From an uncultured Pseudomonadales bacterium (GTDB taxonomy: Bacteria; Patescibacteriota; Microgenomatia; UBA1400; UBA1396), in NCBI GenBank assembly GCA_964519905.1, contig CAZFLN010000006.1, forward strand, positions 4,058-68,057: DNA of 64,000 nt, in the 5' to 3' direction. Positions 4,170 to 30,748 of this stretch are shown piece after piece (within the stretch, counting starts at the first letter, position 1; each line of letters starts with the position of its first letter). The notes under the pieces are model-generated. The model saw nothing but the letters and a program-made list of their open reading frames with translations, was not told where the DNA came from and made no database searches. The position numbers were made by a program, and so were the translations under genes.

Positions 4170-4631
4170 ATGCGATTATTAGATTTACTTGTGACTTTCT
4201 CAGATTATCTTGCGCCAGGTTCTGGTGAGGGTCTTCGTTCATATCGTGTTCATAAGAAAGAACAACTCGATAAGTCTGTTTTGCTAGAAACCGTTAATAG
4301 TGTTTTGTTAGCTGTTAAAAACGCAGAAAAAGATTCTCATAAGCCAAAAATTCCAAACAACTTGCCTCAGGAACAACGTTTGAGAATGGAGAGACTTGTA
4401 GCAGCGCTTGCTGCTCAACAGCTTGAAGTACGTGTTACTGGCCTTTACGTACATCTTCTTAATGAGCTCAAGAAGCATTCTCAATTTTCGGATGTTGTGG
4501 GCCTAGAAATTTCAGCAACTGAAGTCGTTTTAGAACAAGGTGATAGAAAATCTCTTGAAGAAGCTCGTTCTTCTGGGAGAATTCTTCTCATATCAGAACT
4601 TCGTGATTTTTTTGGTCTTGGTACTCGATAA
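4170..4631 (+). CDS. hypothetical protein, paralog of 2372..2743
   Basis: C-terminus HSQFSDVVGLEIS...SGRILLISELRDFFGLGTR is homologous to the 2372 protein. Confidence 0.5.
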   Translation: MRLLDLLVTFSDYLAPGSGEGLRSYRVHKKEQLDKSVLLETVNSVLLAVKNAEKDSHKPKIPNNLPQEQRLRMERLVAALAAQQLEVRVTGLYVHLLNELKKHSQFSDVVGLEISATEVVLEQGDRKSLEEARSSGRILLISELRDFFGLGTR

Positions 4632-4772
4632 TGTTTTTTGTAAAAGATGTACGATATAATGCTCCCATGTTGTTCACGCAAAACACACATCATGCTGCTG
4701 TGCATTACGCCCCAAACGGGAGGTGTGTGTTTCTGATGTTGTAACAGCAATATAAAATAAGACTCGCACAAA

Positions 4773-4798
4773 CCTCCCCAATCGGGGAGGTTTTTTTT
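4773..4798 (+). terminator. intrinsic terminator hairpin plus T8
   Basis: cctcccc-aatc-ggggagg perfect 7-bp stem followed by tttttttt. Confidence 0.65.
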
Positions 4799-4814
4799 GT
4801 GCGGAAAGGAAAAA

Positions 4815-6393: not shown

Positions 6394-6426
6394 GAGAGAA
6401 TGTTAGGTGATTTGGTGAGGGCACTT

Positions 6427-6700
6427 ACCCAAAGAGTATTTCTCAGGTTTGCTTCACTCCGTTTGCAAACTTATAGTGCACGAACTCTCGGATTTGCATC
6501 AAACCATAGGGTTTCAACCACAAAAAAGGCCGCTTATGCGACCTTTTTTATTGCTGTGAACCACCATTGGGCTGGTTCAAACTTTTTCTCTGATGTTTTC
6601 CAGGCGTTGGAAGACTTCCAAGCCTTCATGCTGAGCCTTGGGGAGGCGTACTCGACCGCTCCGGCTCTAGCTTACTAACTACCCAAACCATAACCCACAC
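6427..6700. repeat. copy 1 of an approximately 270-bp conserved non-coding segment (hairpin plus terminator-like stem with T-run)
   Basis: about 85% identical over the first 100 bp to 13893-13990, with weaker homology continuing to about 6700; internal hairpin aggtttgc...gcaaactt; terminator-like aaaaaaggccgcttatgcgacctttttt at 6522-6549. Confidence 0.6.
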
Positions 6701-6756
6701 CACCTCTGTGAGAAATACCCTTAAAGAGGCGACATGCAATAGTAGGCTAACTCGAT

Positions 6757-8688: not shown

Positions 8689-8810
8689 TTACTAATCTGG
8701 GCAGGTCACCATGAGAGATGTACCAATGAGTATAGCATTTTCGGCAGATATACCAATGACTCAAATTAGATCAAGTCAGCCGTTTTTGAAGCATTCCAAG
8801 AGGTCAAAAA

Positions 8811-11513: not shown

Positions 11514-11518
11514 ATTTG

Positions 11519-13492
11519 TTACACTACCTTGAAGTCAATATCTGCTCGTTCAAGATTGAGAATAGTGTTTGTTTTTAGATCGTCATTATTCGCAAAAACG
11601 CGTTCTAAAAAGATAACCTTTGCAGGTTTTCCTCGTTCGAGAAAATCGATAAAATCTCTGGTAACTGTCCCTTTCAGGCAAACAACCAACTTATTATTTC
11701 CAACAACGAAATATGTCACGCCGGCTTGCTCTGATCGTTTAACAGGTTCAGTGAGTTCGAGGCCAGATTTAAGTATGAGTTCGTACAAGAGATTGCTCTG
11801 GTTAGCATCTGGGCTGGTGTTTTCTACTGAGAGTTTAAGTTGTTGAGTAAGTTGCATTGGATTAACAACAGATTGATTCCAGACTTCGAAGTTACTCGCT
11901 TTGAGTCTAAAAAACTTGACACCGACCTGAGATGCTATTTTTCTAATTCTTTCAATAGATATCTCAGAAATGGTTCTGTACCCCAAACGAAAAGCTTCTG
12001 AGTTTTCATCTATTTTTTCTGGAAGTTGAACCATAATAAAATTTCTATCTTGGCCATCTTTTTCATTTAGTTCTATTAAGGCGTGTGCCGTTGTGGCAGA
12101 CCCAGCAAAGAAGTCCATAACTAAGTCATTCTTACCCGATCCGATACTAATCAGATAGCTGATAAGGTCTTTAGGTTTTGGATAATCAAAAATAATTCCG
12201 TTTTTCTCCAACTCAGAGCGCATTTTCTCTGTTGTTCCAAAGTTCCTTAATACGGACAGGATATTGCGAGCTTTTTCCCTCTCTCTTCTATAATAAAGAA
12301 CACCTTTCTCAGAAAGAAAGAATGACAATCTATCACCGTTATCCATTATCGGGTTACAATTGTTTTCAATAAATTGTTTTAGTTTGTTTACATTAGCCCA
12401 ACCACTAAACAATTTGCACGGCGCAAGTAACTTGCTATTTTTTACAGTGAGTTTACCAATTCTTACTGGGTATGATGCTGACCACTTTTCAGTAATTTGC
12501 CTTGAAATATAGCCAAGCTTCTTCACATCACTGAAATAACCCTCAGGCAGATCAGAGCTTTCTAAACTAATTTCATCTATTGAACATGGGAAACCTATTG
12601 GTAACTCAATCTCGCTTGGTGGATTGGCGGGACCATTTTTTGTAATTGAATTTTCAGCATATCCCTTCCACAAATTACTATCTTTTCTTGTATTAGGATC
12701 AACAACTTGTTCCAATTTAGCCCGGTTGCTATTCTTAGCATAAAGAATGATGTACTCATGGTTTATTTTAACGTCCAGTTGATTGTCAGTATGTCCGTCA
12801 GTGTTCCAGACAAACTGTGTAATAAAGTTTTCTTCCCCAAATATCTCGTCCATTATTATTCTTAGATTGTGGACTTCATGATCATCCATGCTAATAAATA
12901 CCAGTCCGTCTTGTCGAAGCAAATTTCTGGCCAAAAATAATCGGGGATACATCATATTCAGCCAGTCAGAGTGGTAATGCCCGTTATCGCGAGTGTTACG
13001 TCGTAGGGCAGTGTCTTTTAAGAGATCGCCGTTGTCATTGCGTTGGCCAGATTCAGCTTCATAGGTTGTTTTATCTTGCTTGAAATTGTCATTATAAATA
13101 AAATCATTACCGGTGTTATATGGGGGATCAATATAAATCATCTTAATCTTGCCATAATAAGAACGCTGCAATATACGCAAAACTTCTAGGTTGTCACCTT
13201 CTATGAAAAGGTTTTTTGTGGTATCAAAGTTGACTGATTCCTGGGGAAGAGGGGCTAAAGTAGCACTGGTAGTTTTTTGAATTTCCCGGAAAACATTAGA
13301 CTTTCCCGCCCAATTCAATCCATATCTTTCTGTGCCACTGCTTACTTGTTCTCCCAGGGTTTGCTTGAGCTTATCCGGATCAATTTTACCCTCACTGAAT
13401 ACTTCTGGGAATTGTTCCTTCAGTTGTTGGAGTAATTCCTCTTGAGGATTAATTGATTTACCATTCATCTTTGGAGTGTTCATATCACTCAT
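11519..13492 (-). CDS. mod: Type III R-M Mod subunit (N6-adenine DNA methyltransferase)
   Basis: IYIDPPYNTGNDF (DPPY) catalytic motif and conserved EQFPEVF N-terminal region; ORF extends to 13525, start chosen at MSDMNTPK. Confidence 0.85.
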   Translation of the reverse strand: MSDMNTPKMNGKSINPQEELLQQLKEQFPEVFSEGKIDPDKLKQTLGEQVSSGTERYGLNWAGKSNVFREIQKTTSATLAPLPQESVNFDTTKNLFIEGDNLEVLRILQRSYYGKIKMIYIDPPYNTGNDFIYNDNFKQDKTTYEAESGQRNDNGDLLKDTALRRNTRDNGHYHSDWLNMMYPRLFLARNLLRQDGLVFISMDDHEVHNLRIIMDEIFGEENFITQFVWNTDGHTDNQLDVKINHEYIILYAKNSNRAKLEQVVDPNTRKDSNLWKGYAENSITKNGPANPPSEIELPIGFPCSIDEISLESSDLPEGYFSDVKKLGYISRQITEKWSASYPVRIGKLTVKNSKLLAPCKLFSGWANVNKLKQFIENNCNPIMDNGDRLSFFLSEKGVLYYRREREKARNILSVLRNFGTTEKMRSELEKNGIIFDYPKPKDLISYLISIGSGKNDLVMDFFAGSATTAHALIELNEKDGQDRNFIMVQLPEKIDENSEAFRLGYRTISEISIERIRKIASQVGVKFFRLKASNFEVWNQSVVNPMQLTQQLKLSVENTSPDANQSNLLYELILKSGLELTEPVKRSEQAGVTYFVVGNNKLVVCLKGTVTRDFIDFLERGKPAKVIFLERVFANNDDLKTNTILNLERADIDFKVV

Positions 13493-13591
13493 TCTAACAA
13501 CGAACGGCCTGACGTGAAAGCGCAATATGTGTCAAAGTGATATACTTCATAACTTCTTCAAAGCTTTTTAAGCTATAAGTGCAGTTTTTCA

Positions 13592-13614
13592 AATCCTAAC
13601 AATCTAATAGGATT
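13592..13614. other. 7-bp stem hairpin (aatccta...taggatt)
   Basis: inverted repeat seen upstream of the mod start. Confidence 0.3.
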
Positions 13615-13740
13615 GGTTGTAGACATAATCAAGATTTAATCATTATTTCCTTTTTAAGTAAGCGCTTGTTTGAGATATAACGAGCGGATAAGTTAGTTAT
13701 GACCTAATCCCAGTTTTTCGAAACCGGGTATGGTCAAAAA

Positions 13741-13783
13741 ACCTGAAAGATAAACAACCCTCGCTGAGGAGTATCTTTCAGGT
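13741..13783. other. 12-bp perfect inverted repeat (acctgaaagata...tatctttcaggt) with 19-nt loop
   Basis: seen directly; lies between the mod gene and the att repeat. Confidence 0.4.
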
Positions 13784-13873
13784 CATGTCAGGAAACTGGC
13801 ATGCGTGGCAATACGGTACTCGGCGGGGGCTTTTTGCCACTCCCAAACGAGTCGCCTCGAACCTTACGATACT

Positions 13874-13892
13874 TGTGACCCCACGGAGATTC
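13874..13892. repeat. attL: 19-bp direct repeat identical to the tRNA-Glu 3' end
   Basis: tgtgaccccacggagattc is identical to 24009-24027; flanking bases differ. Confidence 0.8.
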
Positions 13893-14145
13893 ACCCCAAG
13901 AGTATTTCTCAGGTTTGCTTCACTCCGTTTGCAAACTTGAAGTGCACGAACTCGCGACTTCGTATCAAACCATGAGATTTCAGCTACAAAAATAGTCGCT
14001 CAGGCGACTTTTTTTGTACCTGTGACCCAAAGGGTTTGGGATTGGAACCAGATTCTTCGTGATCTGGTCGACCTGTTCGACACCTTCCGCCAAGACGTAA
14101 TGCTACCTGATGTTAAGTACTCCGTCTAGGGAATAGAACCGGTGT
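13893..14145. repeat. copy 2 of the approximately 270-bp conserved non-coding segment with intrinsic terminator
   Basis: homologous to 6427-6700; perfect terminator agtcgc-tcag-gcgact plus T7 at 13984-14006. Confidence 0.6.
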
Positions 14146-14149
14146 AATA

Positions 14150-17100
14150 CTATCCCCATTTAGTAGCATGGAGCTCTGCCTCTTGATCTTCTCTGACGGC
14201 TTCACGGGCATAAGAATCAGCGATAGCTTTCAGAATCGAAGCTGTTATTGGCCAGTCAGGTGCTACATTTTCGCTCATCTCCTGATATTTTTCGGCAAGA
14301 GATCTTTCTTGAGTTCCACCATCATACGGACCACGTGTGGTAACGCCTCGGTTATTGTAAACGTAGCTTTGGATGTGCCGATTAATTACGCTGTTGTCGA
14401 GTTCTTCTATGATCTTTCTTGCCGCTGTGTGTGGCCAGCAACCATCAGTATCATATGGCGTCTTTGCTAGCACGCTTGCTAATTCCAAGTCGCAACCGGT
14501 TGTGAGACTCTGCTCGGCACAAGATTTTCTGGCAGTTTCAACCCAAGTAGATAGCTCCTTCGCGTCAAGAGCCCCTTCTTCATTTGTTCCAGGAAATCCT
14601 TCCCAAGAATCAAGTACGTTTTTTGCATTTCTCGCCAAGTTACTGGATTGATCAGAATTAAGACCCGCATGTTTCGGGTTGGCCTTCCTATCGTCCCTTT
14701 TGTAAACCATGCCGACAAGGTCACAAAAGAATGCCGGATCTTTTTCGAGCAGCTTGTGAATCGAGAAGGATGTTCTTTCGTTGTCCCTCATTCCTCGGAA
14801 AAGCGACGCGCAAGGCCATTCCAGCTTAGCAATCTCTTCATCCGTGAGTTCTTTGCGCTCTTGCAGCTGCCTGAAAACGTTGGATAGGTAATATTCGGTC
14901 ATGCTGTCTGCATGGCGATCTTCAGAGGGAATGGCAAGTAAATCGAGAATAATTTGTCGGAGCAGATTGCTTGGCAATGAAACAACATGATCGCCGGCGA
15001 TTTCCAATGCTGCCTGAGGTCGTTTGGCGAGAAGAAACTTTTCAGCGGCAATTTGCGCGTTCTCGTTCGAGTGACCTGGCGTATAACCTCTGGCATGTTT
15101 CCAGTATTCTGCTTCAAGATCAATTCCAGCTTTTTCGACTTTCAACCAAGTATCTGGCCCTTCAGGGAGTCCAAGATATAGTTGCGCTGCGATCTCTGGT
15201 GTGTAAATGCCCTCATCTTTCAGTTTTTGGATAGCCGCTTCAACCCAAGCCACACCTTCTTTTTCTGTTCTTCCCCAAGAATAGGAAGAGATAAGCAGAT
15301 GGTTTTTTGCGTGTTTGGCAAAGAAGAAGAGTACTCGATCGTCCTCTTCTTCATTCTTGATGGCTTTTCCCAGCGCTTGTCCCAAAACTCCAACGTATGA
15401 AATACCTGAAGAAAACTTGACGATCTCTTCAAGTGGTACTTTGTCTAGTACTTCTCTGGCAGCTTTTCCTCTTTGTACCGCAACTTCTTTGTCACCATCG
15501 GTCCGATCTCTACGACTCACCTCAGGCAAGTGTGGCCACGGATTATCTAGCAACCAACCAACTCGATCGAGTACATACTCTGGAGTAAATTTGGTGAGTA
15601 GCTTTTTGAGCGGCATGAGGTTCTTCCGCTCGGGCTTTTCGCCGTAACTACTAAGCCAATTCATTGCTTCCCGAATATGTGAACAGAGGAGTTTTACTTC
15701 ATCAGGTGAGAGTTGGTCTTTGTCCATTTGGGTGAGAGTATTCATGAGAGCGGTTTGAATGTAATCTGGAAGGCGAGTAAATTCGTCCATAGCGTCAAGG
15801 ATGTTTACTCTTGTGCACGCCAAACTCTCAAGTCTATTGACCAATTCTTTCTGATATTCCTGTGGATTTGTTTCCGGATCAAAGCCAGACCTCAAGATGC
15901 CGTAGTCCCGCCATCTGAAACGATACGCTTCAGTGAAGTGGCCCCCTGAATGATAAGACTTAGTAAAATTCCAAACGAGCTTTGCATCTTTTGATATGAG
16001 CCTGTCAATCTCTCGTATTCTTTCTGGTGCCGCTGCATAAGTTTGAGGCCAGATGGGCATGAAGATATCTGTCAAACTGTTTGCCGGTCGATTGCTGTAT
16101 CTTCCCCCTGTGTCAATTGCGGCCATTCCTCTGAGAATTTCCACTGCACGAGAGAAATATGTAGAACTCCATGCAAGCGCTTCTAGTGCCCAAAGCAACC
16201 CACTGTGATTGCAGTCTCCAAACGGGCCGCCGTCATCGTCTTTCATCAAGTCAGAAAAAACTTGAGGATGCTTGGCAAGTTGTTTGCGTACCACTTCCAG
16301 AAAAACGTCGGGCGCTGCTTCTGCTAACAGTGGGGAAATATCCTTGAGTGAGGCCCAATGCTCCATTGTGGTCGCGGCCTCCAAAACCTCAGCTACGGTT
16401 TGATTGATCGTATCTTGAAGAGAAACGAGATTTGTCGCTCGGTCTCCCAATACTGAAACCATTGCCAGAGAGCCACAAAGTCCTTCCCTCAGCCAGTCGG
16501 AATGTAGTGGGGCTTTACCATAAACGGCTGCAGCCCATCGCTGATCAGCGGGTAGCTCATATTTAGGATCTTTTTTCAGCAAGACATCCTTCACGACCTG
16601 CTGATACCTCTGAAATATCGCCTCGTCGACATAGCGAGCAATGAGAAACCATGTGTCAATCGGTGACTTCAATACCCAAACATTTCCAACCTTGAGCAAT
16701 GGCGGATCTGCCACTGTTAACAGGTTCCCCAGCTCTGAAAGATAATCCGTATACTTTTTACTAGCGATATATTCAACGATTTGTTGGTCTCCATCTTTCT
16801 TTTCATTCCATGCACCAATGAAAAGAACGGGTAAAAGCAAGTGAGTGTTTTGAGGATTCACCCAAGGTGGATCTGTTATAGCTGGTGAAGGCGACATACG
16901 ACGTCTCAAAACTGGTAGACTCCTGCCGGAATCTCTGGAAAGTTTTCGGGCCTCAACCTCTCCAACACCGATTTTTTTAAGATTCTCCTGAATAGTGCCA
17001 ATAAGTGGTCGAGGAAGGCGCCCAGCATCTCGCGTACTTGAAACGTTTGTTCCTGTACCCAGGAAGACATGATGGCCCTTTCTTACGGCCAAACCTACTA

Positions 17101-17932
17101 AATCATTGCACTCGATCGTTACGGCCAAGATGAGCGAGGTTTGGTATGTATCAAGAATATGTCGTAGATCAGCGGGGTTCTCGACGTAAAGACTTTTGGA
17201 GAGTGAGCGCAATCTCTCGTCATCTGGTAGTCTGGAGAAAGAACTGTATAGAAAAGCAAACGGTTCGTCAGCAGAATCACCTTGAAGCGACAGAATAGCA
17301 GGTGGCTTGTTGAGCCAGCCATGAACAATCTCTACATGATTGTCTCTTCCACCCAGCACAACTTCAGCCGAAAGTGGTGGGTTTGTTGATTCCGACCATT
17401 CTTCCCAAAAGCTCTCCAAGCTCCGTATTCCGCCTGCGCTCGCCTTTCCCAGGCGTTTGGCAAGCCATAAACCCACGGCAGGCGCCTGATCGAGCCAGAG
17501 TGCAAGGTCATCGGCATCGATAGCCCTTACTGATTTCCAATGGTTGGATGCAGCCTTGCTGGTTGCCCACTCATGTCGTTTTGGCCAACGTCGTGGCGTT
17601 ACAAAAACGAAAGATGTATCTTTGGGTGTCAGAGCCAACGAGTCAGCGACCCTTTTCGTGTAATCATCGTCAGCTTTTTTCTTGGGCGACTCCTTTGTGC
17701 CCATTTCCCAACCAGAAACGCCATCAGGGAGATAGGGGGATGATGATGCAATGTTCAACCTGCCGTCCCATCCGGGAGTTGCCACACTGTCTTGTTCAGG
17801 GAAAGAAACTTCACTAACAGAATTAGCTGTTGCCAAAACAAGGCGTCGTAGGAGTTGGGGCAAAAAAGAGGCGCAATCTCTTTGATTACTTTCACTCCAA
17901 GACTTGATATCACCGGCACTTATCCATTGCAT
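14150..17932 (-). CDS. 1260-aa protein of unknown function (island cargo)
   Basis: long uninterrupted ORF; no Walker A/B, no HxH, no obvious catalytic signature; weak D...ExxxK pattern (GWDGRL...WEMGTK) in the first 90 aa. Confidence 0.6.
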   Translation of the reverse strand: MQWISAGDIKSWSESNQRDCASFLPQLLRRLVLATANSVSEVSFPEQDSVATPGWDGRLNIASSSPYLPDGVSGWEMGTKESPKKKADDDYTKRVADSLALTPKDTSFVFVTPRRWPKRHEWATSKAASNHWKSVRAIDADDLALWLDQAPAVGLWLAKRLGKASAGGIRSLESFWEEWSESTNPPLSAEVVLGGRDNHVEIVHGWLNKPPAILSLQGDSADEPFAFLYSSFSRLPDDERLRSLSKSLYVENPADLRHILDTYQTSLILAVTIECNDLVGLAVRKGHHVFLGTGTNVSSTRDAGRLPRPLIGTIQENLKKIGVGEVEARKLSRDSGRSLPVLRRRMSPSPAITDPPWVNPQNTHLLLPVLFIGAWNEKKDGDQQIVEYIASKKYTDYLSELGNLLTVADPPLLKVGNVWVLKSPIDTWFLIARYVDEAIFQRYQQVVKDVLLKKDPKYELPADQRWAAAVYGKAPLHSDWLREGLCGSLAMVSVLGDRATNLVSLQDTINQTVAEVLEAATTMEHWASLKDISPLLAEAAPDVFLEVVRKQLAKHPQVFSDLMKDDDGGPFGDCNHSGLLWALEALAWSSTYFSRAVEILRGMAAIDTGGRYSNRPANSLTDIFMPIWPQTYAAAPERIREIDRLISKDAKLVWNFTKSYHSGGHFTEAYRFRWRDYGILRSGFDPETNPQEYQKELVNRLESLACTRVNILDAMDEFTRLPDYIQTALMNTLTQMDKDQLSPDEVKLLCSHIREAMNWLSSYGEKPERKNLMPLKKLLTKFTPEYVLDRVGWLLDNPWPHLPEVSRRDRTDGDKEVAVQRGKAAREVLDKVPLEEIVKFSSGISYVGVLGQALGKAIKNEEEDDRVLFFFAKHAKNHLLISSYSWGRTEKEGVAWVEAAIQKLKDEGIYTPEIAAQLYLGLPEGPDTWLKVEKAGIDLEAEYWKHARGYTPGHSNENAQIAAEKFLLAKRPQAALEIAGDHVVSLPSNLLRQIILDLLAIPSEDRHADSMTEYYLSNVFRQLQERKELTDEEIAKLEWPCASLFRGMRDNERTSFSIHKLLEKDPAFFCDLVGMVYKRDDRKANPKHAGLNSDQSSNLARNAKNVLDSWEGFPGTNEEGALDAKELSTWVETARKSCAEQSLTTGCDLELASVLAKTPYDTDGCWPHTAARKIIEELDNSVINRHIQSYVYNNRGVTTRGPYDGGTQERSLAEKYQEMSENVAPDWPITASILKAIADSYAREAVREDQEAELHATKWG

Positions 17933-18003
17933 ACGGCATCATTCTAGTCCCAATTTTCCCCGAAGTGAATCAGTAATGTTGTGCATCAAAACTGTGTAAA
18001 ATC

Positions 18004-18381
18004 TTGAGTATGCGCGTAAAACGAGGGAGACCATCCCTTCTCACGGAATCTGTCCAAAATCAATTAAAACAAGCGTTTCTGGTCGGCGCAACCGACGACG
18101 AAGCTTGTTTAGTGGTGGGAATTGCCCCAAGCACACTCTATAAATTCCAGGAGAAAAACCCGTCATTTTCGGAGCAAAAACGACTATGGAAGCGTTCTCC
18201 AGTTTTTCGCGCCAAGGCGACGATCGTCCGCAATCTCGACAATGTCGATGTGGCCAAGTGGTACTTGGAACGTAGAGCCAAAGATGAGTTTTCGACAAAA
18301 CACGAGTTGGAAGGGATTTCCGACAATACACCAATCCAAGTAATATTTAGGGGAAAAGATGAAGACAAGGCAAACGTTTAG
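18004..18381 (+). CDS. HTH protein resembling phage terminase small subunit
   Basis: KRGRPSLLTE...GATDDEACLVVGIAPSTLYKFQEKNPSFSEQ matches the conserved N-terminal pattern of P27-type TerS and related HTH proteins. Confidence 0.5.
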   Translation: MSMRVKRGRPSLLTESVQNQLKQAFLVGATDDEACLVVGIAPSTLYKFQEKNPSFSEQKRLWKRSPVFRAKATIVRNLDNVDVAKWYLERRAKDEFSTKHELEGISDNTPIQVIFRGKDEDKANV

Positions 18382-18635
18382 AAATTCACAAGATCATTGA
18401 GCGTTTTGCCCAAGGCCTTGGCGATCTTCCACAAGACAAAAACGGTTGGATGATACTTCCCGGCTTCAAGATGAGCGACGTATGCGGAATGAAGCTTGGC
18501 TCTACCGCCCAGCTCTTCCTGTGAGATACCTTTGCTTTTCCGAGCGTCACGAATATTACCAGCTAATCTTTGGGTGAATTCTTTACGGACTTTGGTGTTG
18601 TCTCCGTCTGTTTCAGGGAGATTTATCGTATTCAT
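18378..18635 (-). CDS. XRE-family HTH transcriptional regulator
   Basis: KGISQEELGGRAKLHSAYVAHLEAGKYHPTVFVLWKIAKALGKTLNDL is a classic Cro/C1-type HTH; start taken at MNTINLP (ORF extends to 18767). Confidence 0.7.
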   Translation of the reverse strand: MNTINLPETDGDNTKVRKEFTQRLAGNIRDARKSKGISQEELGGRAKLHSAYVAHLEAGKYHPTVFVLWKIAKALGKTLNDLVNF

Positions 18636-18708
18636 TTCAACAATTATTTTCCTGGTGATTAGAGGCTTACGCCATGGCGTAGTCATCAAGTTAGTGATAT
18701 GATCTCTG

Positions 18709-19590
18709 GTGATGAAGAAGACCAAAAAAGCATTCGCCCACGGTGTGAATTGGAAATCTCGGCCCATTCAGTTACGGGCAGGTTTCTTAATTCTTGTCCT
18801 CTCGCTCATTCTCTACAAAGCAGTTCCCGGAGTGGTTCGTGCCTACGACGTTCAAAAGGTAAACCAAGCCATTCAGGAAGCCGAGACATTGGCAAAAGCA
18901 GGACAAACCGAGGAAGCTGTATTGGTACTCCAATCTACGTCCTCCCGATACATGACCCAAGAACAGGCGGAGAAAATCACCTCTCAGTTTGGTGAGTTGG
19001 CAAACCCACCGGCCAAAGGTATGAGCTTCGATGATTTCGATCAAATGTTGAAAGATCGAGGAGAACCAGGAATCTTAGGCTCACCTGCGCCAAAACCGTC
19101 ACAGGTACCAAAGCAAATACCAACGCCCTTACCCACAGCGCTTCCAACCGTAAACGCCAATCCACAAGTGCGCTGCTATTACGACAGTCGCTGCGGTGGT
19201 ACGAAGATCACAACCAAAGACGAATGCCTGAATACTACCTGTTGCTATGACGGTTCAACTTGGAACATTAAATCGAAGACGGATTGCCAGAAACAATCGG
19301 ACGAGGCGGCTCAAAAACAACTCGACGCCTGGAATACATCGCAATCCCAGATGCAGGCCGAAATTGAAGCCCTACAGAAGGCCACGGAAACCATTACTCA
19401 ACAAAACGCTCAAACCCAAGCTGAGCTTCTCGAGGCATGTCGACAGCAAGCACAAAAAACCTATGCGCAACCGGCACAAGGGAGTCAAACTTCCACAACT
19501 GGTTACGTTGTTGGTGAATCACCGGAGCAGCGACAAAAGCTTAATCAAGCTATGCAGCGTTGCCTGGATCTGTATGGAGGAGGACAATGA
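18709..19590 (+). CDS. membrane-anchored, Cys-rich, Q-rich secreted protein
   Basis: N-terminal TM (FLILVLSLILY); Pro-rich linker; 8 Cys in 60 aa; divergent from the XRE gene. Confidence 0.45.
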   Translation: MMKKTKKAFAHGVNWKSRPIQLRAGFLILVLSLILYKAVPGVVRAYDVQKVNQAIQEAETLAKAGQTEEAVLVLQSTSSRYMTQEQAEKITSQFGELANPPAKGMSFDDFDQMLKDRGEPGILGSPAPKPSQVPKQIPTPLPTALPTVNANPQVRCYYDSRCGGTKITTKDECLNTTCCYDGSTWNIKSKTDCQKQSDEAAQKQLDAWNTSQSQMQAEIEALQKATETITQQNAQTQAELLEACRQQAQKTYAQPAQGSQTSTTGYVVGESPEQRQKLNQAMQRCLDLYGGGQ

Positions 19591-19826
19591 AAAAGTCGCA
19601 CCTCCTATTCATCGCAGTTGCTCTGTTGGCGTATTATCTGGGATATCGTTCAGGAATCGGCAACCAGGTGGCTCGATATGGCGATACTGGGTTGCCAAAG
19701 AATTGCCGGGCGCTAATTGCCACCAACATCAGTGGTTTTAAGTATAGCCAGTACACCGCAGAGGAAGCGCTTTACTCTATCGACCGTAACTGTGGTCCAG
19801 CTGGGCTTATTTGGAATGAACGATGA
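19587..19826 (+). CDS. small membrane/secreted protein
   Basis: GGAGGAGG RBS then ATG overlapping the upstream stop (ATGA); signal-like MKKSHLLFIAVALLAYYLG. Confidence 0.4.
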   Translation: MKKSHLLFIAVALLAYYLGYRSGIGNQVARYGDTGLPKNCRALIATNISGFKYSQYTAEEALYSIDRNCGPAGLIWNER

Positions 19827-19831
19827 TGCAT

Positions 19832-20596
19832 TCAAGCTATTTTGCCACCGACTTCTTTCCACAATTCTTGTAAACCATTTTTTACTTCTTCTGTCGTTTC
19901 CACTTCATTTGACAAGAGTAAGGCAATTTTCAAACATGCTCCATAGGAAACCATGATGCCCATATGCAAATCCAACTCTGCATAACCGTCGAGTGTGATT
20001 TGTGCCAGGTGGCCAAGAATATCACTGGGTGATGTGTGATTTTTTCTATTACCAGCAATATATATCTTAAAAAGGGTTTGCATTTCGGTTTTAGGGATGA
20101 CTTTCTCCTGAACAAGCCAAGCTACTACTTGTTCCACGCTTTGGCCAGCCCAATTATGGCGGCCATTTTTCAACTTAGCCGGAATGGCATCATATGAGTC
20201 ATTGATCCTTTTTATTTCCTCTGGTTCGATTTCTACACCTGCTGACAGTAAAAAATCCATGTCTTCTTTTTGTTCTACTGCATCAAATTGGATGAATTGC
20301 CGTGAATACGCTTCTTTTCCCTTCTTTTCAATATAAAACATATAGACCATATCCTCTAAAATCCTTCTTGATAGGTCGAGAATAGAGCCGCTGTACACAG
20401 TGCGCAGAGAGGGATCTTCTTCTGCCAGATTGGCCAAAGTGATACTGGTCTGGAGAGTTAAATAATCCTTCCGAAATACCCCCTCAAGGACTCTTCCAAA
20501 GAGGGATTTATACGTGTTTGGTCCTGTTGCCAAGGGGTAGCTAATATCAAGTAGCTGGAGGGATTTTTTACGAAAATCGACTTGTGATTTTTCCAT
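19832..20596 (-). CDS. hypothetical protein
   Basis: 254-aa ORF; no motif recognised. Confidence 0.45.
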   Translation of the reverse strand: MEKSQVDFRKKSLQLLDISYPLATGPNTYKSLFGRVLEGVFRKDYLTLQTSITLANLAEEDPSLRTVYSGSILDLSRRILEDMVYMFYIEKKGKEAYSRQFIQFDAVEQKEDMDFLLSAGVEIEPEEIKRINDSYDAIPAKLKNGRHNWAGQSVEQVVAWLVQEKVIPKTEMQTLFKIYIAGNRKNHTSPSDILGHLAQITLDGYAELDLHMGIMVSYGACLKIALLLSNEVETTEEVKNGLQELWKEVGGKIA

Positions 20597-20640
20597 TGAG
20601 AGGATTATACTCCGGCGTACGGACAGTCAGGTTCAGATAT

Positions 20641-22128
20641 ATGGCAAATTATTGGAGCAACGAGCTTTTAGGAAGGTATGACCCGCAAGATGGTTGGCTT
20701 GGGATTGATTATCGACGGCACTTTCTAAATCCACACCAAACAATGATGACTTACATCCATGAACAAGCCCACGGCATACTTTGCAACGGTACTGAATATG
20801 GGCAGGCAACGAAGACGCTTCTACGATTTCTTCCGCATGCAACAGCAATGTCTGAGGAGCAACGCGCCGCCATCTTTAAGAAACTTCATGATTCACAGTT
20901 TTATGTTCAGGAGGCAGCAGCAACTCTTGCTCCAATTTTTGGGCTGAGAGATGCCAAAGGTCCGGCGGTTGCACGCAAATGGGCCAAAGACAATTTGCCA
21001 GATGATTACTACAACCGTGTTGAGGGGCTTTTTTTTGCGTTGGAATTTGGAGCAAGATACAGAGAACTATTCCTACAACAATCATCGCATTTAGCGATGC
21101 ATACGAAGATTCGTAAAGATGTTGTTGCTTACGATCTACTAAGAAACCCTGAACAATTTATCGACTATTTGTCCCAACCAGATAATATTCCTAGTGACAG
21201 GTTTCAAAAACTTACACAGGCATTTTGGGCTAAGCCCCATCTACCAACTCGCTCAGATGAAGAAGTAGCAAAGCATGCCAACCTACCCCTTTTCGAAATC
21301 TTGACCAAAGATGAAGTCGCAAACTTCCTCAACTATGTTGCAGAGTTTTGTGGACTACCAGTTCGAACTGATGCAACACGCATAAAAGATCCATTGACAC
21401 CAGAAGCTCACGTAAAAGAACTGGCAGAAAACGTTCTTATCGCGAATATGAATTTCAACTTACCTGACCGTGCTATGTGGCTTAAACAAACAGATGATTT
21501 GAAATTTATTTCTGACAAAGTTGATGCGGTTATTATCAACAGAGTCGATCCTTCATCCAACCTCGCTGATAATTTCAAGATTGTTATGGGGCGAGAAGCT
21601 GACCTTGGAATTATTACATTCCAAAAAACGGGCGAAGTATATTTAACAGGTTTGTCTGAAATGGAAGCATCAACAATCCTTAAGCAAGAGTTAAAAAATG
21701 CGACACTTATCACCAAGTGGGGGTTATATGAGCCCGGAAATGAAAACGTTTCTTTCTTCCCAAGTATCCGTCGACCAGATGTAGTTATTTACAACACACT
21801 TGGCGACATGCGCGTGTCAATGCAAAAGTATTTGGAGCAACATGACTGTGTTTGCTTCAATGCCCAAGCTTCTCCAGGAAGCCCGATACATACTTTTGTG
21901 ATCGTAGATCAGAAAGGTACTCTTCATATGTTGAACGCCATGGGAGTTCAACCGATAAACTCCTTTTTGTCTGATAACAAAGAACATCTGCATGTTGTTC
22001 AGCCAGATCAATCAACCGTTAATCCAGCCCACTACAACAATGTCCTTTCTGTTTGGAATGACTTGCCATGGGATGTCGATTGGTATGCCTCCATGCTTGA
22101 TGGTGAAAATGTAATTAATCGCACCTAA
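20641..22128 (+). CDS. HExxH-motif protein (possible metallopeptidase)
   Basis: YIHEQAHGI near the N-terminus; start at MANYWSN within ORF 20584..22128. Confidence 0.5.
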   Translation: MANYWSNELLGRYDPQDGWLGIDYRRHFLNPHQTMMTYIHEQAHGILCNGTEYGQATKTLLRFLPHATAMSEEQRAAIFKKLHDSQFYVQEAAATLAPIFGLRDAKGPAVARKWAKDNLPDDYYNRVEGLFFALEFGARYRELFLQQSSHLAMHTKIRKDVVAYDLLRNPEQFIDYLSQPDNIPSDRFQKLTQAFWAKPHLPTRSDEEVAKHANLPLFEILTKDEVANFLNYVAEFCGLPVRTDATRIKDPLTPEAHVKELAENVLIANMNFNLPDRAMWLKQTDDLKFISDKVDAVIINRVDPSSNLADNFKIVMGREADLGIITFQKTGEVYLTGLSEMEASTILKQELKNATLITKWGLYEPGNENVSFFPSIRRPDVVIYNTLGDMRVSMQKYLEQHDCVCFNAQASPGSPIHTFVIVDQKGTLHMLNAMGVQPINSFLSDNKEHLHVVQPDQSTVNPAHYNNVLSVWNDLPWDVDWYASMLDGENVINRT

Positions 22129-22288
22129 GTTACACTTGTAAGCAATTTTGGTAACAAAATCCTGATTCAGACCCCATTTATTCCAGCAGTTTTTGCGATA
22201 ATTTCTTGTGTTGACAGATCAATCAATTTGCTCGTTTTCATTCCAATTCACACACGGTGTAAATTGACGTATATATCAATCTTTTCTG

Positions 22289-22318
22289 TTGACACCAATG
22301 GTATGCGGATGGTTATAT
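22289..22318 (+). promoter_or_regulatory. sigma70-like promoter (TTGACA-18-TTATAT) for the small-ORF/recombinase operon
   Basis: ttgaca 22289-22294, 18-nt spacer, ttatat 22313-22318. Confidence 0.45.
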
Positions 22319-22337
22319 TCGGACTAGGAAATCTACC

Positions 22338-22496
22338 GTGACCATCGCAAAAGCAAGAAAATTACTGGGAAAATCGGCGGAGCTGCTGACTGATGAACAG
22401 GTGCAGCTCAAAATTGACGTGGCTGAGCAGCTGAAGGAGTTGTTCTTTGATTTTTTGCTCAAGAGTTTAAGACAGAAAAAGGCATACCAATCTTGA
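22338..22496 (+). CDS. 52-aa small protein (GTG start) upstream of the serine recombinase; homolog of 62859..63044
   Basis: AGGAAA 6 nt upstream of GTG; IAKARKLLGKSAELLTDEQVQLKIDVAEQLKEL aligns with IEKAQAILRKSKHSFSDDQTERLIDVMEKFSSAI. Confidence 0.4.
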   Translation: MTIAKARKLLGKSAELLTDEQVQLKIDVAEQLKELFFDFLLKSLRQKKAYQS

Positions 22497-22503
22497 GGAA
22501 ACT

Positions 22504-24048
22504 ATGAAATACTTGGGTCCGATGCGAAAAAGAGTTGTTATATACATCCGAGTATCAGACCCTGGTCAAATCGATAACAATAGCCTTGAAACTCAAGAGA
22601 AATACTGTCGTAAAAAAGCCAGTGAAATGGGCGCTGAAGTTGTTGAGATATTTCGAGAGGAAGGTGTCTCTGCAAAGACAATTGACAAAAGGCCGGAACT
22701 GAGGCGACTTCTACAGTTTTGTAGCCTCAAAAAGAATGATATTCAAGCAGTTATTGTGTATAGACTGGACAGGTGGTCGAGAAATGTAACCGATGCATTG
22801 CAGGCAAAGTTTCTCCTTGCCAAGTATGGTGTTCAGCTTATTTCGGCAACTGAAGGCATAACAGACGATCCTCAAGGCGAATTTCTTGGAACGATCACTT
22901 TCGCTATGGCTCAGCTCGACAATCAACTCAAGGCCGCACGCGTCTCAGATAACATGAAGACTATGTTTCGAAATGGTTTGTGGCCATGGAAGGTCCCACC
23001 TGGTTATAAACGTCCATTCAAAACCAAAGAGGAAAGCAAAGGTAAACCAGCCATAATCGACCCCGACATCGGTCCAATTCTTCATGAGCTGTTTGTTGAG
23101 GCATCCAAAGGGATTTTTTCCAGGAAACAACTTGCTGAAAAGACAAATTTACTTGGATACGCGGATTTCAAAGGGAGGAAAATCAATGAAAAGGTAATCG
23201 TTGACATTCTTTCTGACACCTTTTACCACGGGCTTATGCATGCGCCGAGATGGGATGAGTACGCTGTCGGTTTGCATGAACCCCTGATTGATGAACTCAC
23301 TTGGAAAAAGGCGTATGCTTCAGTAATTAAGAAGCGAAAATATATGTATCAAGATACTGTGGATTACCCACTCAAGGGCACGATCAAGTGTGAGCTTTGT
23401 GACCACTTCATGACCTCGAGCAATCCCAGAGGGCGGACCAAGAACTACAAGCATTACGAATGTGGGAATCCAAAATGCCGTCGGTCACGTATCCTGGCGT
23501 CTTCAGCACATGAGCAGTTTGCATCCATTCTTTCCCGGGTCAAACCCGCTCCAGACGTCATGGTGTTGTTTACGGATATGGTATTTTCCGAATGGGATTC
23601 AGTGGTGAGTACCGTTGCGACACTCACTCAAACATTGGACAAGAGAATTGCCGACCAAAAAAAAGAACTCGATAGGATCAGTAGGTCTTGTGACCGAGGT
23701 ATATATACAGAGGCTGAGGCCAAGGAAAAAGCTGATGAAGTACGTCGAGAAATCACTATCTTGGAGGTTGAAAAAACTGACTCAGTGATAGCTGGATACG
23801 ATGCCAAGATCGTCAAGGCGTTTACCGAAAGATTCCTTGAACACTTTGACGAACTATGGAAACAACTTGATCTGCCCAAGCAGCAAGCTCTCCAGGTGAA
23901 AATATTTCCCAACGGTATCTTGTGTGACAAAAACAAGAATATTCGAACCGCAGAAATGAGCGAATGCTTCCAGCTAATTGAGGCTCTTGGAAGCGAAAAT
24001 GTCGAAAATGTGACCCCACGGAGATTCGAACTCCGGTTACCAGGATGA
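22504..24048 (+). CDS. large serine recombinase (integrase)
   Basis: VVIYIRVSDPGQ resolvase catalytic Ser region plus recombinase domain plus Cys-rich zinc-ribbon (CELCDHF...CGNPKC) plus coiled coil; last 38 nt overlap the tRNA-Glu gene. Confidence 0.85.
   Translation: MKYLGPMRKRVVIYIRVSDPGQIDNNSLETQEKYCRKKASEMGAEVVEIFREEGVSAKTIDKRPELRRLLQFCSLKKNDIQAVIVYRLDRWSRNVTDALQAKFLLAKYGVQLISATEGITDDPQGEFLGTITFAMAQLDNQLKAARVSDNMKTMFRNGLWPWKVPPGYKRPFKTKEESKGKPAIIDPDIGPILHELFVEASKGIFSRKQLAEKTNLLGYADFKGRKINEKVIVDILSDTFYHGLMHAPRWDEYAVGLHEPLIDELTWKKAYASVIKKRKYMYQDTVDYPLKGTIKCELCDHFMTSSNPRGRTKNYKHYECGNPKCRRSRILASSAHEQFASILSRVKPAPDVMVLFTDMVFSEWDSVVSTVATLTQTLDKRIADQKKELDRISRSCDRGIYTEAEAKEKADEVRREITILEVEKTDSVIAGYDAKIVKAFTERFLEHFDELWKQLDLPKQQALQVKIFPNGILCDKNKNIRTAEMSECFQLIEALGSENVENVTPRRFELRLPG
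24009..24027. repeat. attR: 19-bp direct repeat (tRNA-Glu 3' end)
   Basis: identical to 13874-13892. Confidence 0.8.
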
Positions 24049-24083
24049 GAACCTGGCGTCCTAGGCCTCTAGACGATGGGGCC
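24011..24083 (-). tRNA. tRNA-Glu (anticodon CTC)
   Basis: reverse complement folds as GGCCCCA acceptor, GTCTAGAGGCCTAGGAC D-arm, CCAGG-TTCTCAT-CCTGG anticodon arm, CGGAG-TTCGAAT-CTCCG T-arm, discriminator A; CCA not encoded. Confidence 0.85.
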
Positions 24084-24238
24084 GCGTGTGGCGCGGGAGC
24101 AATTGCTCAGACCAGACAGGATTGAATTATATCGCATCAGAGAAGGAATGTGAATTCAGGCTTTTTCCAAGATTTGAGAATTTTTGCAAGCATTTTGTTT
24201 GATTCATTTGCGATAGTGCTGGAAACAAAAGGAGGCAC

Positions 24239-24856
24239 TTGTCCAAATTCCTTACAAAATCGTTGATTCTGGGAGCAGCGTCGGTGGCGTTCTATTCATT
24301 GGTAGCAACAACGGCGCTGGCATTATTTCTGCCACAGGCCCGCGTAGAAACACTCACGTTCAGAACTGCCAAGCTGGCACTTTCGGTTTCGTCTGATCAG
24401 TCTGCTTTGCCCAATACTGCCAGTTTCCAGACAGAAGTAGCGTTTCCAGCACTCTCTTCACTCATTCCTGGCACTGAGCACGAGACGTATTTTTGGGTAA
24501 GAAACGACTCGAATCCAGTTCACACACTCCAGCTCGCTGGACAGTTCTTGTCAGGAGATCAAGCTTGGGATACGTTGCAACATCTCATAGAAGTGCAAAT
24601 TCGTGATATGTCTTCTCAACAAGTTGGCGAGTGGATGTCGCTGCATGAATGGACGAATCAAACGCATCAGTTTCCAGGAGATAAGCTTAATGATAATCAA
24701 CCGAAGCGCTACGTGTTCGCGTATCGATTGCTAGAAAACTATCCCTTGGATCCCGATGGGGATGGCCCCTTGCAAGTTGGCAGTCCGATTGGGAATGAGC
24801 TGATGAGTCAAGAAACTGCTGGAGTCGTTTTCGAGATTGATGGGAGTGTGCAATGA
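24239..24856 (+). CDS. secreted protein with signal peptide (possibly TasA/camelysin-like)
   Basis: N-terminal signal LILGAASVAFYSLVATTALA; the family call is weak. Confidence 0.45.
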   Translation: MSKFLTKSLILGAASVAFYSLVATTALALFLPQARVETLTFRTAKLALSVSSDQSALPNTASFQTEVAFPALSSLIPGTEHETYFWVRNDSNPVHTLQLAGQFLSGDQAWDTLQHLIEVQIRDMSSQQVGEWMSLHEWTNQTHQFPGDKLNDNQPKRYVFAYRLLENYPLDPDGDGPLQVGSPIGNELMSQETAGVVFEIDGSVQ

Positions 24857-25071
24857 ACTCATTCTCTTGGATTCTTCTCGGTTTTCTAAGTATCTGGGTT
24901 ACAACTCTGAGTGCGGCACTTTTATCAAGTAAAGTGTTGCTTACAGCACTGCCAAATTCTCTGGATTCTTTACAAAATGCAACAGTCTTTGCAGGTGTCA
25001 TTGGAATCCCGACTCTTTTGTGCGTCTTGATTCAACTGTGGCAGGTACGACATGTGGAAATGGCTCGATAG
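24853..25071 (+). CDS. 72-aa two-helix membrane protein
   Basis: ATGA overlap with the upstream stop; two hydrophobic segments. Confidence 0.35.
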   Translation: MNSFSWILLGFLSIWVTTLSAALLSSKVLLTALPNSLDSLQNATVFAGVIGIPTLLCVLIQLWQVRHVEMAR

Positions 25072-26359
25072 TCGATTTTTCTGGTACTGCTTGTGGGCGA
25101 CTGCTGCTTGGGTTGTCGTAAGTCTTTGGGGAGTAATGCAAGTTGGCGCGGTGTGGAGGCCACACCGCGCCAGACTCTCCGCCTTTACGTTTCGAGTTGG
25201 CGAGGCACCTGGTTTTCAATCTTTGGACTTTTCTTTACCCGCTCCACAGGACTCAATCTGCGAACCTGTTGGACTTACCCTTTTTTGGGAAGATTCAAGC
25301 CTGCAGATTCAAGAAACAGGTGGAGTTGTAAAATTTTCTCATCCAGAAAACAAAGACACGATTCGGTTTTCCATTCAAAAGCAGGCAGGTCAATTGTGTG
25401 AAGATCGAACACAGCTTGTTTTTACCTCTCCAACATTTCTGGAAAGAACACTCCCTTGGTGGGGAGCAGCATTTTCACTGCATGCAGGTGATATGAATTC
25501 TGAACCGCAGCACGCAATAGAACTTTTCCACACTCCAACAGAAGTTATTTGGTTCGCGCCGGAAGAATTTCTAGAAGTGTCTCTGCATTTGCAGCTTGCT
25601 GTGCCGGATGATACCCCTCTTGTGTCACTCCCTTTGCTCCATTCCTGGTGGCAAGGAAATCCTGCTTCAGAATTTTGTCACAATTTTGTCTCCGTATTTT
25701 TCCCACAGAGTTCTTGTTCCACTGGTTGGTGGAAAATTTGGCAAGCTCCAGAACTTCAACACGAAAATTTGGCAGAATATTCTTCACCAACACCCGGCCA
25801 AGTAGTTATTAGTGAGGTGAACTGGGCAGGTTCGTTTACCGATGCAGCGAATCTCAGCACTGACGAATGGATCGAGCTTACGAACTTGTCTGCTGAACCA
25901 GTTTCATTGCACGGAGTCTCGTTGGCGGGAGCCGGTGTAAATGGCGAAGCGTTATTAATTCCTTCTCCACTTATATTGGCACCCTATCGTCAGGTTGTTC
26001 TGTCCCGGCTGTCAGCCACCCAGTCTCAGCTTAAAGATGCGCCTGATCTCGTCTTGCCGGCCATGCGAATTTCCAATTCGAATGCGCACATACTTCTTAT
26101 TGCAGAGAGCGGAGAAATACTCGATCAAACACCCACTGGTCCTTGGCAAGTCGGAGTGAATCAAACGAGTGGTCATGCGCAGCGAGCTTCTGCACAGCGT
26201 TGGTTAAATGCGCCCGATGGCACCCAGTGGGCGGCTTGGTTTGATTGTGTTGTGATTTCCGACACTTGGTGCCAGGCACAATCTCAAAACTCTCTCCATT
26301 TTGGCGCACAAAAAAATTGGGGAAGTCCACGTCGACTTTCGCCATTCATTCCGAATTAA
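25052..26359 (+). CDS. membrane-anchored lamin-tail-domain (LTD) protein
   Basis: N-terminal TM; [43 protein letters not shown] matches the LTD signature. Confidence 0.55.
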
Positions 26360-30430: not shown

Positions 30431-30748
30431 AGGTTTGTTTAGACGTTCGCGTAGCTCTTTTTGGAGTTATGAGGAAAGTCCGGACAGCAGAACGCAGGGT
30501 GCCAAGTGAAAGCTTGGGGGCATGGCAACATGCAACAGTGAGAGCCACAGAAACGATCCGGGTAACGCCGGCTGAAACGCCAAGTGGTCCTTCATCGAGA
30601 GATGAATGAGGCAATCCTCCCCGCTGCAACCGCCGATTTTCACCGTGTTGGATGCGTTCCCAGCTGCTTTTGCAGCCGGTGATAAGGTTGCGGGCATCAG
30701 AGAAATGAACGTCCCCGACAGAATCTGGCTTATCGAACAGACCTCAGT
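30431..30748 (+). ncRNA. rnpB: RNase P RNA (bacterial type, reduced length of about 318 nt)
   Basis: GAGGAAAGTCCGGAC P4 5' strand; ACAGAATCTGGCTTATCG P4 3' strand; P1 pairing aggtttgtt/aacagacct; TATAAT at 30416-30421; hairpin terminator at 30754-30781. Confidence 0.8.

Follow-up and report, generated by a model that had tools for sequence, protein, structure and literature searches.

A large serine recombinase gene that appears to straddle its own attachment site at the 3' end of a Patescibacteria tRNA-Glu gene

The tRNA-Glu locus and the limits of the element

The 64,000-nucleotide stretch analysed here (the window) belongs to the genome of an uncultured bacterium placed in Patescibacteriota (Microgenomatia, UBA1400, UBA1396; assembly GCA_964519905.1, contig CAZFLN010000006.1, positions 4,058 to 68,057). 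In it, a gene for a large serine recombinase (LSR) converges on a tRNA-Glu(CTC) gene and ends within it, and the two meet at the right-hand side of what is, to judge from sequence comparisons, very probably an integrative cassette of ~10.0 kb (14021-24016) lying at the extreme 3' end of the tRNA (Table 1). ARAGORN places the tRNA at 24010-24083 on the minus strand and Rfam recognises it at 24011-24083 (56.1 bits), the interval in which an earlier note, made from the letters alone, had expected it. The LSR open reading frame (ORF) closes with the TGA at 24046-24048, 39 nt into the tRNA counting the stop; anticodon positions 35-36 and A37, read in antisense, give this TGA. Twelve sense codons (V503-G514) precede it within the tRNA, just as the note had reported, and it is the tRNA's antisense strand that codes for residues 505-514 (PRRFELRLPG). 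The note had also drawn attention to a 19-mer, TGTGACCCCACGGAGATTC, which indeed exists as two exact plus-strand copies (13874-13892 and 24009-24027), the right-hand one being the tRNA's 3' end; no further copy was found within 2 mismatches, where 0 were expected (100 shuffles).

Contrary to what had been proposed, these repeats do not bound the element. The same element, with all genes syntenic, occupies the tRNA-Glu site of another host (locus L050), and the two align in a single blastn high-scoring segment pair that begins exactly at 14021 (window 14021-24084, 86.7% identity over 10,066 bp), whereas the flanking NTP-transferase gene is just 68% identical. In L050 the left junction (attL) reads ...atagcg-TGTGACCC-AAAGGG and the right junction (attR) ...cgaaaa-TGTGACCC-CATGGG, with nothing beyond the 8-mer in common, and both the 19-mer and the spacer that follows it in the window are absent. 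An empty site, located via the homologue of a flanking protein, is available in three loci (L045-L047), in which a right flank syntenic with the window adjoins a tRNA-Glu(CTC) with no element and with a terminator abutting the tRNA. The same loci hold a partial copy of the tRNA 3' end and a spacer ~150 bp from the tRNA, homologous to window 13875-14020. Because the partial copy and the spacer occur there without the element, the 19-mer is older than the element and is not an attachment site. The empty site anticipated in the earlier note therefore exists, but the partial tRNA copy and spacer are already in place in it. Other members of the family have a repeat of just 7-10 bp at the tRNA end, and in a linear contig with a close relative of the LSR (L001) the body of the recombinase is joined straight to its C-terminal tail, with no spacer between.

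Direct repeats of TGTGACCC flank the element and the tRNA is intact, features of tRNA-targeting islands; together with the empty site in L045-L047 and the same element in L050, they uphold the original view of a site-specific integrative element at tRNA-Glu. The site on the excised form (attP) and the site in the chromosome (attB) have only this 8-bp core in common, the reconstructed junctions reading …GTCGAAAATGTGACCCAAAGGGT… and …TTTTTTTGTACCTGTGACCCCACGGAG…, respectively. Exact-match scans with the tRNA 3' half in genome and metagenome contigs gave no match, nor did the attP junction of the exact window element in metagenome contigs, and no contig encoding the exact window recombinase or P0001 is on record (exact look-up). 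An independent assembly of the same species (L049, Logan), which equals window 24054-25167, breaks inside the tRNA at 24054, as a polymorphic or repeated junction would cause it to do.

The common core measures 7-8 bp in 10 reconstructed attP/attB pairs. In two relatives (L009 and L010) the attR core is GTGATCC, its T pairing with T3 of the tRNA, and the attL core is GTGACCC; these mismatches narrow strand exchange down to (T)GTGA (tRNA positions ~72-74). A dyad-symmetry scan for the central dinucleotide was uninformative, and the crossover is placed to (T)GTGA only. A crossover at this position leaves the whole tRNA encoded by the host and shifts nothing but the 3' trailer and the terminator (13994-14009), over 10 kb. 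On the tRNA's strand, no terminator-like site follows before 21099.

Table 1. Features of the window that are discussed in the text
Feature	Position	Strand	Evidence
'seg1', spacer copy 85% identical to 'seg2', then core-like TGTGAACC (6555-6562)	6420-6562		left junction of older insertion
Older GC-poorer island	6757-13525	-	Pfam, PADLOC
LOOT RNA (Rfam RF03000), right end of older island	13701-13815	+	77.8 bits (gathering threshold 46.4), full length
Partial copy of tRNA 3' end; predates element, not an att site	13874-13892		same position in L045-L047; not in L050
'seg2', 128-bp spacer with bidirectional terminator (13994-14009)	13893-14020		alignment of window-minus-element to L045
attL core TGTGACCC, true left end of element	14021-14028		start of homology to L050; alignment with L001 gene
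Detached LSR 3' end, 35 codons (VTQRVWDWNQILRDLVDLFDTFRQDVMLPDVKYSV) and stop	14022-14129	+	71% identical to P0002/L001 C-terminus
1260-aa protein, function unknown, cargo	14150-17932	-	full-length match to phrog_18693, E 2.8e-159
125-aa terminase-small-subunit-like DNA-binding protein, cargo	18004-18381	+	phrog_4102, E 2.9e-19; homologue in L028
XRE-family HTH regulator	18378-18767	-	PF01381, E 4.3e-14; 91% identical in L001
293-aa Q-rich protein with hydrophobic N-terminus, cargo	18709-19590	+	ORF; 72% identical homologue in L001
DUF5677 protein, cargo	19832-20596	-	PF18928, E 7.1e-9; conserved in L050
514-aa orphan, cargo	20584-22128	+	ORF; 495-aa counterpart in L050
Conserved ~52-60-aa protein, directly upstream of LSR	22338-22496	+	cluster 0, in 11/13 elements
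Large serine recombinase, integrated isoform, 514 aa	22504-24048	+	Pfam domains, family alignment
attR core TGTGACCC, tRNA 3' terminus (positions ~68-74 plus 1 nt)	24009-24016		core mismatches in L009 and L010
Intact tRNA-Glu(CTC), integration target	24010-24083	-	ARAGORN, Rfam
Promoter-like site upstream of tRNA, TTCACA-17-TATAAT, 11/12	24126-24154	-	consensus match only

The split recombinase gene and its detached tail

The window enzyme is a bona fide LSR. It contains the Resolvase (PF00239, E 6.5e-31, residues 11-158), Recombinase (PF07508) and Zn_ribbon_recom (PF13408) domains; in the family alignment, the catalytic R16-V17-S18 motif is invariant in 40 homologues and the cysteines of the Cys4 zinc ribbon (C296, C299, C320, and C325) are nearly invariant. 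The AlphaFold2 (AF2) model of the closest homologue, P0002, has a mean predicted local distance difference test score (pLDDT) of 89.7 and is confident to residue ~490, with long helices at 344-391 and 397-421; a disordered linker encoded by the core (496-501, pLDDT <50) and a tail helix (504-523) follow. The top Foldseek matches of this model are the full-length SPbeta, Bxb1, and phiC31 integrases (probability 1.00).

P0002 (82% identity, 531 aa) is the product of an uninterrupted gene in L001. This gene tracks the right end of the window element up to TGTGACCC and thereafter follows window 14021-14140 instead of the tRNA, which identifies 14022-14129, 10 kb upstream of the ORF, as the true 3' end of the window gene. 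Judging from this alignment, the gene very probably straddles attP, and the detached segment would be contiguous with the rest only in the excised form. In the circular form the protein has 537 aa and would end in the flexible, core-encoded linker and a conserved helix of ~20 residues; integration exchanges the last 33, while 504 of the 537 residues stay in one ORF, and in the integrated version 10 tRNA-antisense codons replace the tail before the TGA in the anticodon loop. Such a gene, spanning attP and with its true C-terminal 33 codons detached, departs from the textbook signature that the earlier note had recognised here.

The detached tail resembles a coding sequence that is maintained as such. 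Its consensus, VTxRVxVRNxIIxDLIxLFNxF...YSV, is kept between LSRs that are only 45-50% identical, and the tails are much better conserved than the DNA that follows them. The tails of L002 and L010 differ by 9 synonymous and 1 nonsynonymous codon changes. This 9:1 synonymous bias and the weakly conserved downstream DNA argue that the tail is a selected peptide, which by these sequence criteria is under purifying selection.

The arrangement recurs throughout a family of several hundred proteins of about 500-540 aa, mostly 45-55% identical, whose sources, where named, are Patescibacteria; the genome loci come from Microgenomates-type metagenome-assembled genomes. Nearly all aligned members end in peptides like ...NVTPRGIEPRLPG, the antisense translation of the acceptor and T arms of a tRNA. 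In ~30 of 36 family loci the LSR ORF runs at its end into a convergent tRNA, with a modal overlap of 39 nt; 25 of these tRNAs are tRNA-Glu and the remainder are Lys, Val, Arg, and Tyr. Among 118 full-length database proteins, the native tail is present in 4 and tRNA-antisense tails are present in at least 88. A hidden Markov model (HMM) derived from 11 detached tails, that of the window not among them, finds the window tail at E 2.2e-14; across 54 loci it detects detached tails in 22, always upstream of the LSR and on its own strand, and tails contiguous with the LSR in 4.

Two contigs from different samples, L053 (1-5086) and L054 (1-4975), are 100% identical circular permutations with terminal overlaps and yield a 4,945-bp circle with a full-length LSR, which is a minimal circular form of this element type. 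The circle also encodes the small ORF upstream of the LSR, an AAA_15 ATPase with a 204-aa partner (HEC-01/PDC-M07-like), and two small ORFs. The excised and integrated states thus both occur in nature.

Some loci depart from the general pattern. In L003, a 495-kb contig, there is no tRNA within 10 kb of the recombinase, and the sequence immediately following it contains a tail-like stretch in another frame (11480-11640). L051 (5560-5720 and 14371-14640) has a detached tail, and its recombinase, which carries a short unrelated C-terminus and adjoins genes resembling those of type IV secretion systems, reads into sequence in which ARAGORN calls no tRNA. Both may represent secondary sites or decayed copies; programmed frameshifting was considered for them and dropped because the shifts go in different directions. 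In L004 (~11480-11660), the recombinase is followed by GTGAGCC, ~80 bp with a hairpin and terminator, and a second GTGAGCC, an arrangement that recalls the 19-mer/spacer/core module of the window; the tail detected there by the profile lies elsewhere (5351-5530).

Older insertions and cargo at the tRNA

To the left of the element, the window holds signs of an earlier insertion at the same tRNA. In the empty site the spacer seg2 abuts the tRNA and contributes, with its final ~20 bp, the B arm of attB; a second copy of it (6420-6554) lies further upstream. Between the two copies stretches an island (6555-13873) that runs from the core-like TGTGAACC to the 19-mer, the first 8 nt of which are the core. 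It encodes an OLD/AAA_15 ATPase (6757-8688) and the restriction and modification subunits of a Type III restriction-modification (R-M) system (res, 8811-11513; mod, 11519-13525), and its GC content is 0.38-0.42 against 0.45-0.48; no LSR remnant was found in it. By position, the island lies exactly where an insertion into spacer, core, and tRNA would lie, and it probably represents an older cassette that became trapped there. Second tails are present in L021 and L028, and in L008 a gene 75% identical to that of the 1260-aa protein (865-4671) is found just outside the element, to the left of a detached tail (4778-4951), a layout that suggests a stacked older unit there as well. From these sequence arrangements, the locus reads as an insertion hotspot with cassettes stacked at one tRNA.

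The right end of the older island carries a LOOT RNA, with the Type III mod gene on one side and the partial tRNA copy on the other. Another, likewise full-length, is found in L003 (8827-8958, minus strand, 72.2 bits against a gathering threshold of 46.4), 1 kb upstream of the family recombinase, so that this locus combines a family LSR, a related Type III R-M system, and a LOOT RNA. The RNA was discarded as a general component of the elements, being present only in the window and L003 among ~25 loci scanned.

The spacer of ~130-150 bp is conserved between lineages (L045 9637-9786) and, as described, duplicated in the window. Its hairpin, AGGTTTGC...GCAAACTT, shows one compensatory change and a variable loop among the 3 sequences compared, and the spacer might encode a small RNA or be bound by a protein. 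Each lineage's partial tRNA copy agrees with the T stem of its own tRNA (window 13874-13892, CACGGAGATTC; L045 9619-9636, CACCCGGATTC), which implies that the duplication was made, or homogenised, independently and once the tRNAs of the lineages had diverged. Two other origins were rejected: a decayed second tRNA or tRNA-like RNA has no sequence or pairing support and is not found by Rfam, and derivation of the spacer from the end of an LSR element is contradicted by its lack of similarity to any other locus.

The 13 elements that could be delimited measure 4.1-10 kb and have only three recurrent gene families: the LSR, a ~55-aa protein encoded upstream of it, and the XRE regulator (cluster 2, in 8 of the 13). 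The gene of the small protein always lies just upstream of the LSR start or overlaps it; the protein has the motif KARKxLGKxAxxxSDxExxxxIxxAExLKxLFF and no Pfam match, and is a candidate accessory or directionality factor. The remaining genes of the window element are largely without annotation. The 1260-aa protein, which has no Pfam, NCBIfam, or PDB match, belongs to a widespread, unannotated family that is also represented in L050, L051, and L008. Some of its homologues (among P0232-P0241) are fused to an N-terminal XRE helix-turn-helix (HTH) domain (1345-1371 aa), and these fusions hint, at the level of sequence, at a DNA-associated or regulatory role. For the 293-aa Q-rich protein no family was found in Pfam, PHROGs, or NCBIfam, and the 514-aa orphan has no match in Pfam, PADLOC, PHROGs, NCBIfam, or PDB. 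Relatives carry an NgoPII-type R-M system, PDC-S39, an AAA_15/HEC-01-like pair, or a STAND-like ATPase, and the cargo of the family thus appears variable and often defence-related.

Two further features were noted elsewhere in the window. A second GC-poor block (~55000-64000, GC 0.36-0.39) may be a further mobile element: it encodes an orphan of 969 aa (55109-58018), a tyrosine integrase (60869-61780), and, from 63074 and cut off by the end of the window, a distant serine recombinase. A bacterial RNase P class A RNA (30431-30748, plus strand, 132.9 bits) is syntenic with L045 16212-16527.

Known systems and possible roles of the tail

The window family has the same resolvase, recombinase, and zinc-ribbon/coiled-coil architecture as the large serine integrases of phages (e.g., Bxb1, phiC31, SPbeta, and A118/LI), and likewise a short common core without long identity between attP and attB. 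It differs from them in targeting the 3' terminus of a tRNA and in having attP inside the integrase ORF, so that integration alters the protein; its members are cassettes of 4-10 kb rather than phages. Staphylococcal cassette chromosome (SCC) elements and cis-mobilizable elements (CIME) are small cassettes without transfer genes that LSRs insert at the 3' end of a single conserved gene; their cargo is variable, and intact and recombinase-less units are stacked in tandem at the same site. The window family has these features in common with SCC-type cassettes and with arrays of CIME and integrative and conjugative elements (ICE), and its loci show the stacking as well. Unlike SCC, the window family has a single recombinase gene and targets a tRNA, not rlmH, and the window LSR is not a ccr orthologue (NCBIfam CcrB 82.5 bits and CcrC 51.8 bits, both against a cut-off of 900).

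Two other systems resemble the split gene more closely. Integration of the virus SSV1, typically into a tRNA gene, partitions its integrase gene. The archaeal 'suicidal' tyrosine integrases of the SSV type (SSV1, pTN3, and pT26-2) also have the att site inside their own gene, in a compact int-att module (PMC8371274). The SSV-type split cuts the catalytic domain off from an N-terminal piece and is regarded as inactivating, whereas the window LSR swaps only the last 33 of 537 residues; being a serine recombinase and not a tyrosine enzyme of the PF16795 (Phage_integr_3) type, it is a functional analogue of this group and not a member. In the integration-dependent immunity of the mycobacteriophages BPs and Brujita (Broussard 2013), attP likewise lies in a coding region and integration occurs at a tRNA gene (PMC9262239). 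As in the window LSR, the C-terminus is replaced, a new stop arises at or near the junction, and the protein reports the integration state (PMC9262239). There, however, the split gene is that of the repressor, which loses a C-terminal degradation tag on integration, the integrase is a tyrosine enzyme, and the core is ~35 bp, whereas in the window the serine integrase itself is split, at an 8-bp core; the XRE regulator of the window is intact and 4 kb from either end. The window LSR is therefore SSV-type-like in layout and integration-dependent-immunity-like in logic, and has the defining features of neither. Finally, work on the engineered phiC31 Int-gp3 fusion indicates that a peptide appended C-terminally to a serine integrase can change the site pair recombined (PMC5737554), a result that, by analogy, would support a natural C-terminal appendage setting directionality. 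In that artificial construct a whole recombination directionality factor (RDF) is fused, whereas the window tail is a natural peptide of ~33 aa found in the excised form only.

Taken as a whole, the account given here, of a gene split at attP whose tail is a functional part of the protein, has a probability of roughly 0.75. On this account, the tail would be a functional peptide made from the excised form only, so that the cell would produce two state-specific isoforms of 537 and 514 aa. The full-length form would most likely perform attP x attB integration, and the tail-less form, made from the integrated copy only, might either be an excision-competent partner of the small upstream protein or be down-regulated; antisense read-through from the promoter of the now unterminated tRNA may help to down-regulate the integrated LSR gene. 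This specific role of the tail is put forward tentatively, and so is the idea that the split gene acts as a built-in sensor of the integration state that sets the direction of recombination, the full-length form made by the circle integrating and the tail-less form excising or being switched off: each has somewhat less than an even chance of being right.

Several points weigh against this account. The role of the tail, as a determinant of directionality or a state switch, is a best guess. The C-termini of integrated forms contain from 2 to ~45 tRNA-encoded residues, a variability which suggests that the enzyme body may be indifferent to whatever follows residue ~500. No attP-form or circular copy of the exact window element was found, L001 being 82% identical and a linear contig, and the pLDDT of the AF2 tail helix is only ~60, from an alignment that held almost no true tails. 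As to the hotspot, the older island is assigned to the LSR family by its position, and an ORF taken for a second detached tail (6556-6678) is not detected by the tail HMM and has been downgraded to positional evidence. The second copy of the 19-mer and spacer may have been regenerated if an empty allele recombined across the 19 identical nt.

The foremost alternative, though an unlikely one, is that attP overlaps the 3' end of the gene incidentally, through genome compaction, and that the tail is dispensable and the isoforms are alike. It would fit with 94% of the protein, including all LSR domains, being untouched, with a low-confidence tail model set off by a disordered linker, and with the high variability of the replacement tails encoded by tRNAs; in addition, the half-sites of serine integrases need ~20 bp, which could explain some of the conservation of the DNA. 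The conserved ORF, however, reaches ~105-120 nt past the core, well beyond a half-site, and the frame and stop of the tail are kept in >20 lineages; the codon differences between L002 and L010 and the sharp drop of conservation just downstream of the tails also run counter to an incidental overlap.

It is improbable that the element is a phage satellite or a defective prophage moved by a helper phage, a notion that would be compatible with the integration mechanism proposed above. Of the integrase, repressor, replication module, and packaging-hijack genes that characterise phage-inducible chromosomal islands (PICI) of ~10-15 kb, it possesses the integrase, an XRE repressor-like regulator, and a terminase-small-subunit (TerS)-like gene (phrog_4102); the 1260-aa protein corresponds to phrog_18693, and GP3_package genes occur in L052 and beside the tRNA of L045. 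Against this, no capsid, capsid-remodelling, large terminase, or replication gene was recognised, the TerS-like gene is confined to a minority of elements, the LSR has no relatives among the 2.9 million contigs of IMG/VR, and the sole match in phage records is a weak and partial one to the 1260-aa protein.

The view that loss of the tail inactivates the enzyme, so that exit would need a full-length copy in trans, is quite unlikely. It draws on the formal analogy with SSV-type integrases (PMC8371274) and on signs of frequent entrapment, namely the recombinase-less remnant (6563-13873) and the stacked tails of L021 and L028. Only 6% of the protein is exchanged, however, at least 88 lineages have an intact ORF in the integrated form, the same element is found in different hosts at an identity above that of the host genes, and identical circles were recovered from two samples. 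Slightly less likely still is a tail acting as a degradation or instability tag, through which the excised-form enzyme would be short-lived until integration removed the tag. There is a precedent (PMC9262239), and the final residues of many tails are small or hydrophobic (-YSV, -FAV, and -AYA), but other termini differ (-ISS, -ASQ, and -KVI), what is conserved is an amphipathic motif inside the tail, IIxDLIxLFNxF, and not just the last 3 residues, and stabilising the integrase after integration offers no obvious gain. Recombination inside the perfect 19-bp repeats, with a unit of 13874/13893-24027, can be put aside as very improbable: the repeat is exact, unique to its two sites, and improbable by chance, and a 19-bp duplication of a tRNA 3' end is the classical scar of tRNA-targeting integrases, but this boundary conflicts with the L050 alignment, the empty sites, the short cores of the relatives, and the spacer-free junction in L001.

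Serine integrases are valued in genome engineering because they are simple and one-way, and how their direction is set is an active structural question. The window family suggests a coupling of enzyme form to integration state, with the att site placed in the linker codons between body and tail. If the sensor reading is true, the self-splitting integrases of archaea would have a counterpart among bacterial serine recombinases, and the engineered integrase-RDF fusions an analogue in nature. Targeted literature searches returned no description of this LSR family, and a large published LSR survey makes no mention of tRNA. The self-splitting layout had previously been described only for archaeal tyrosine integrases. 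The family contradicts both the generalisation that phages with serine integrases avoid tRNA genes (PMC9262239) and the claim that recombinases splitting their own gene, which in archaea are tyrosine enzymes, are exclusive to that domain (PMC8371274). In the bacteria of the Candidate Phyla Radiation (CPR), the mobile elements of whose small genomes are poorly described, a compact vehicle of 4-10 kb, consisting of the recombinase, the small ORF, and the regulator, shuttles R-M and other defence genes between hosts and builds defence islands at tRNA-Glu.

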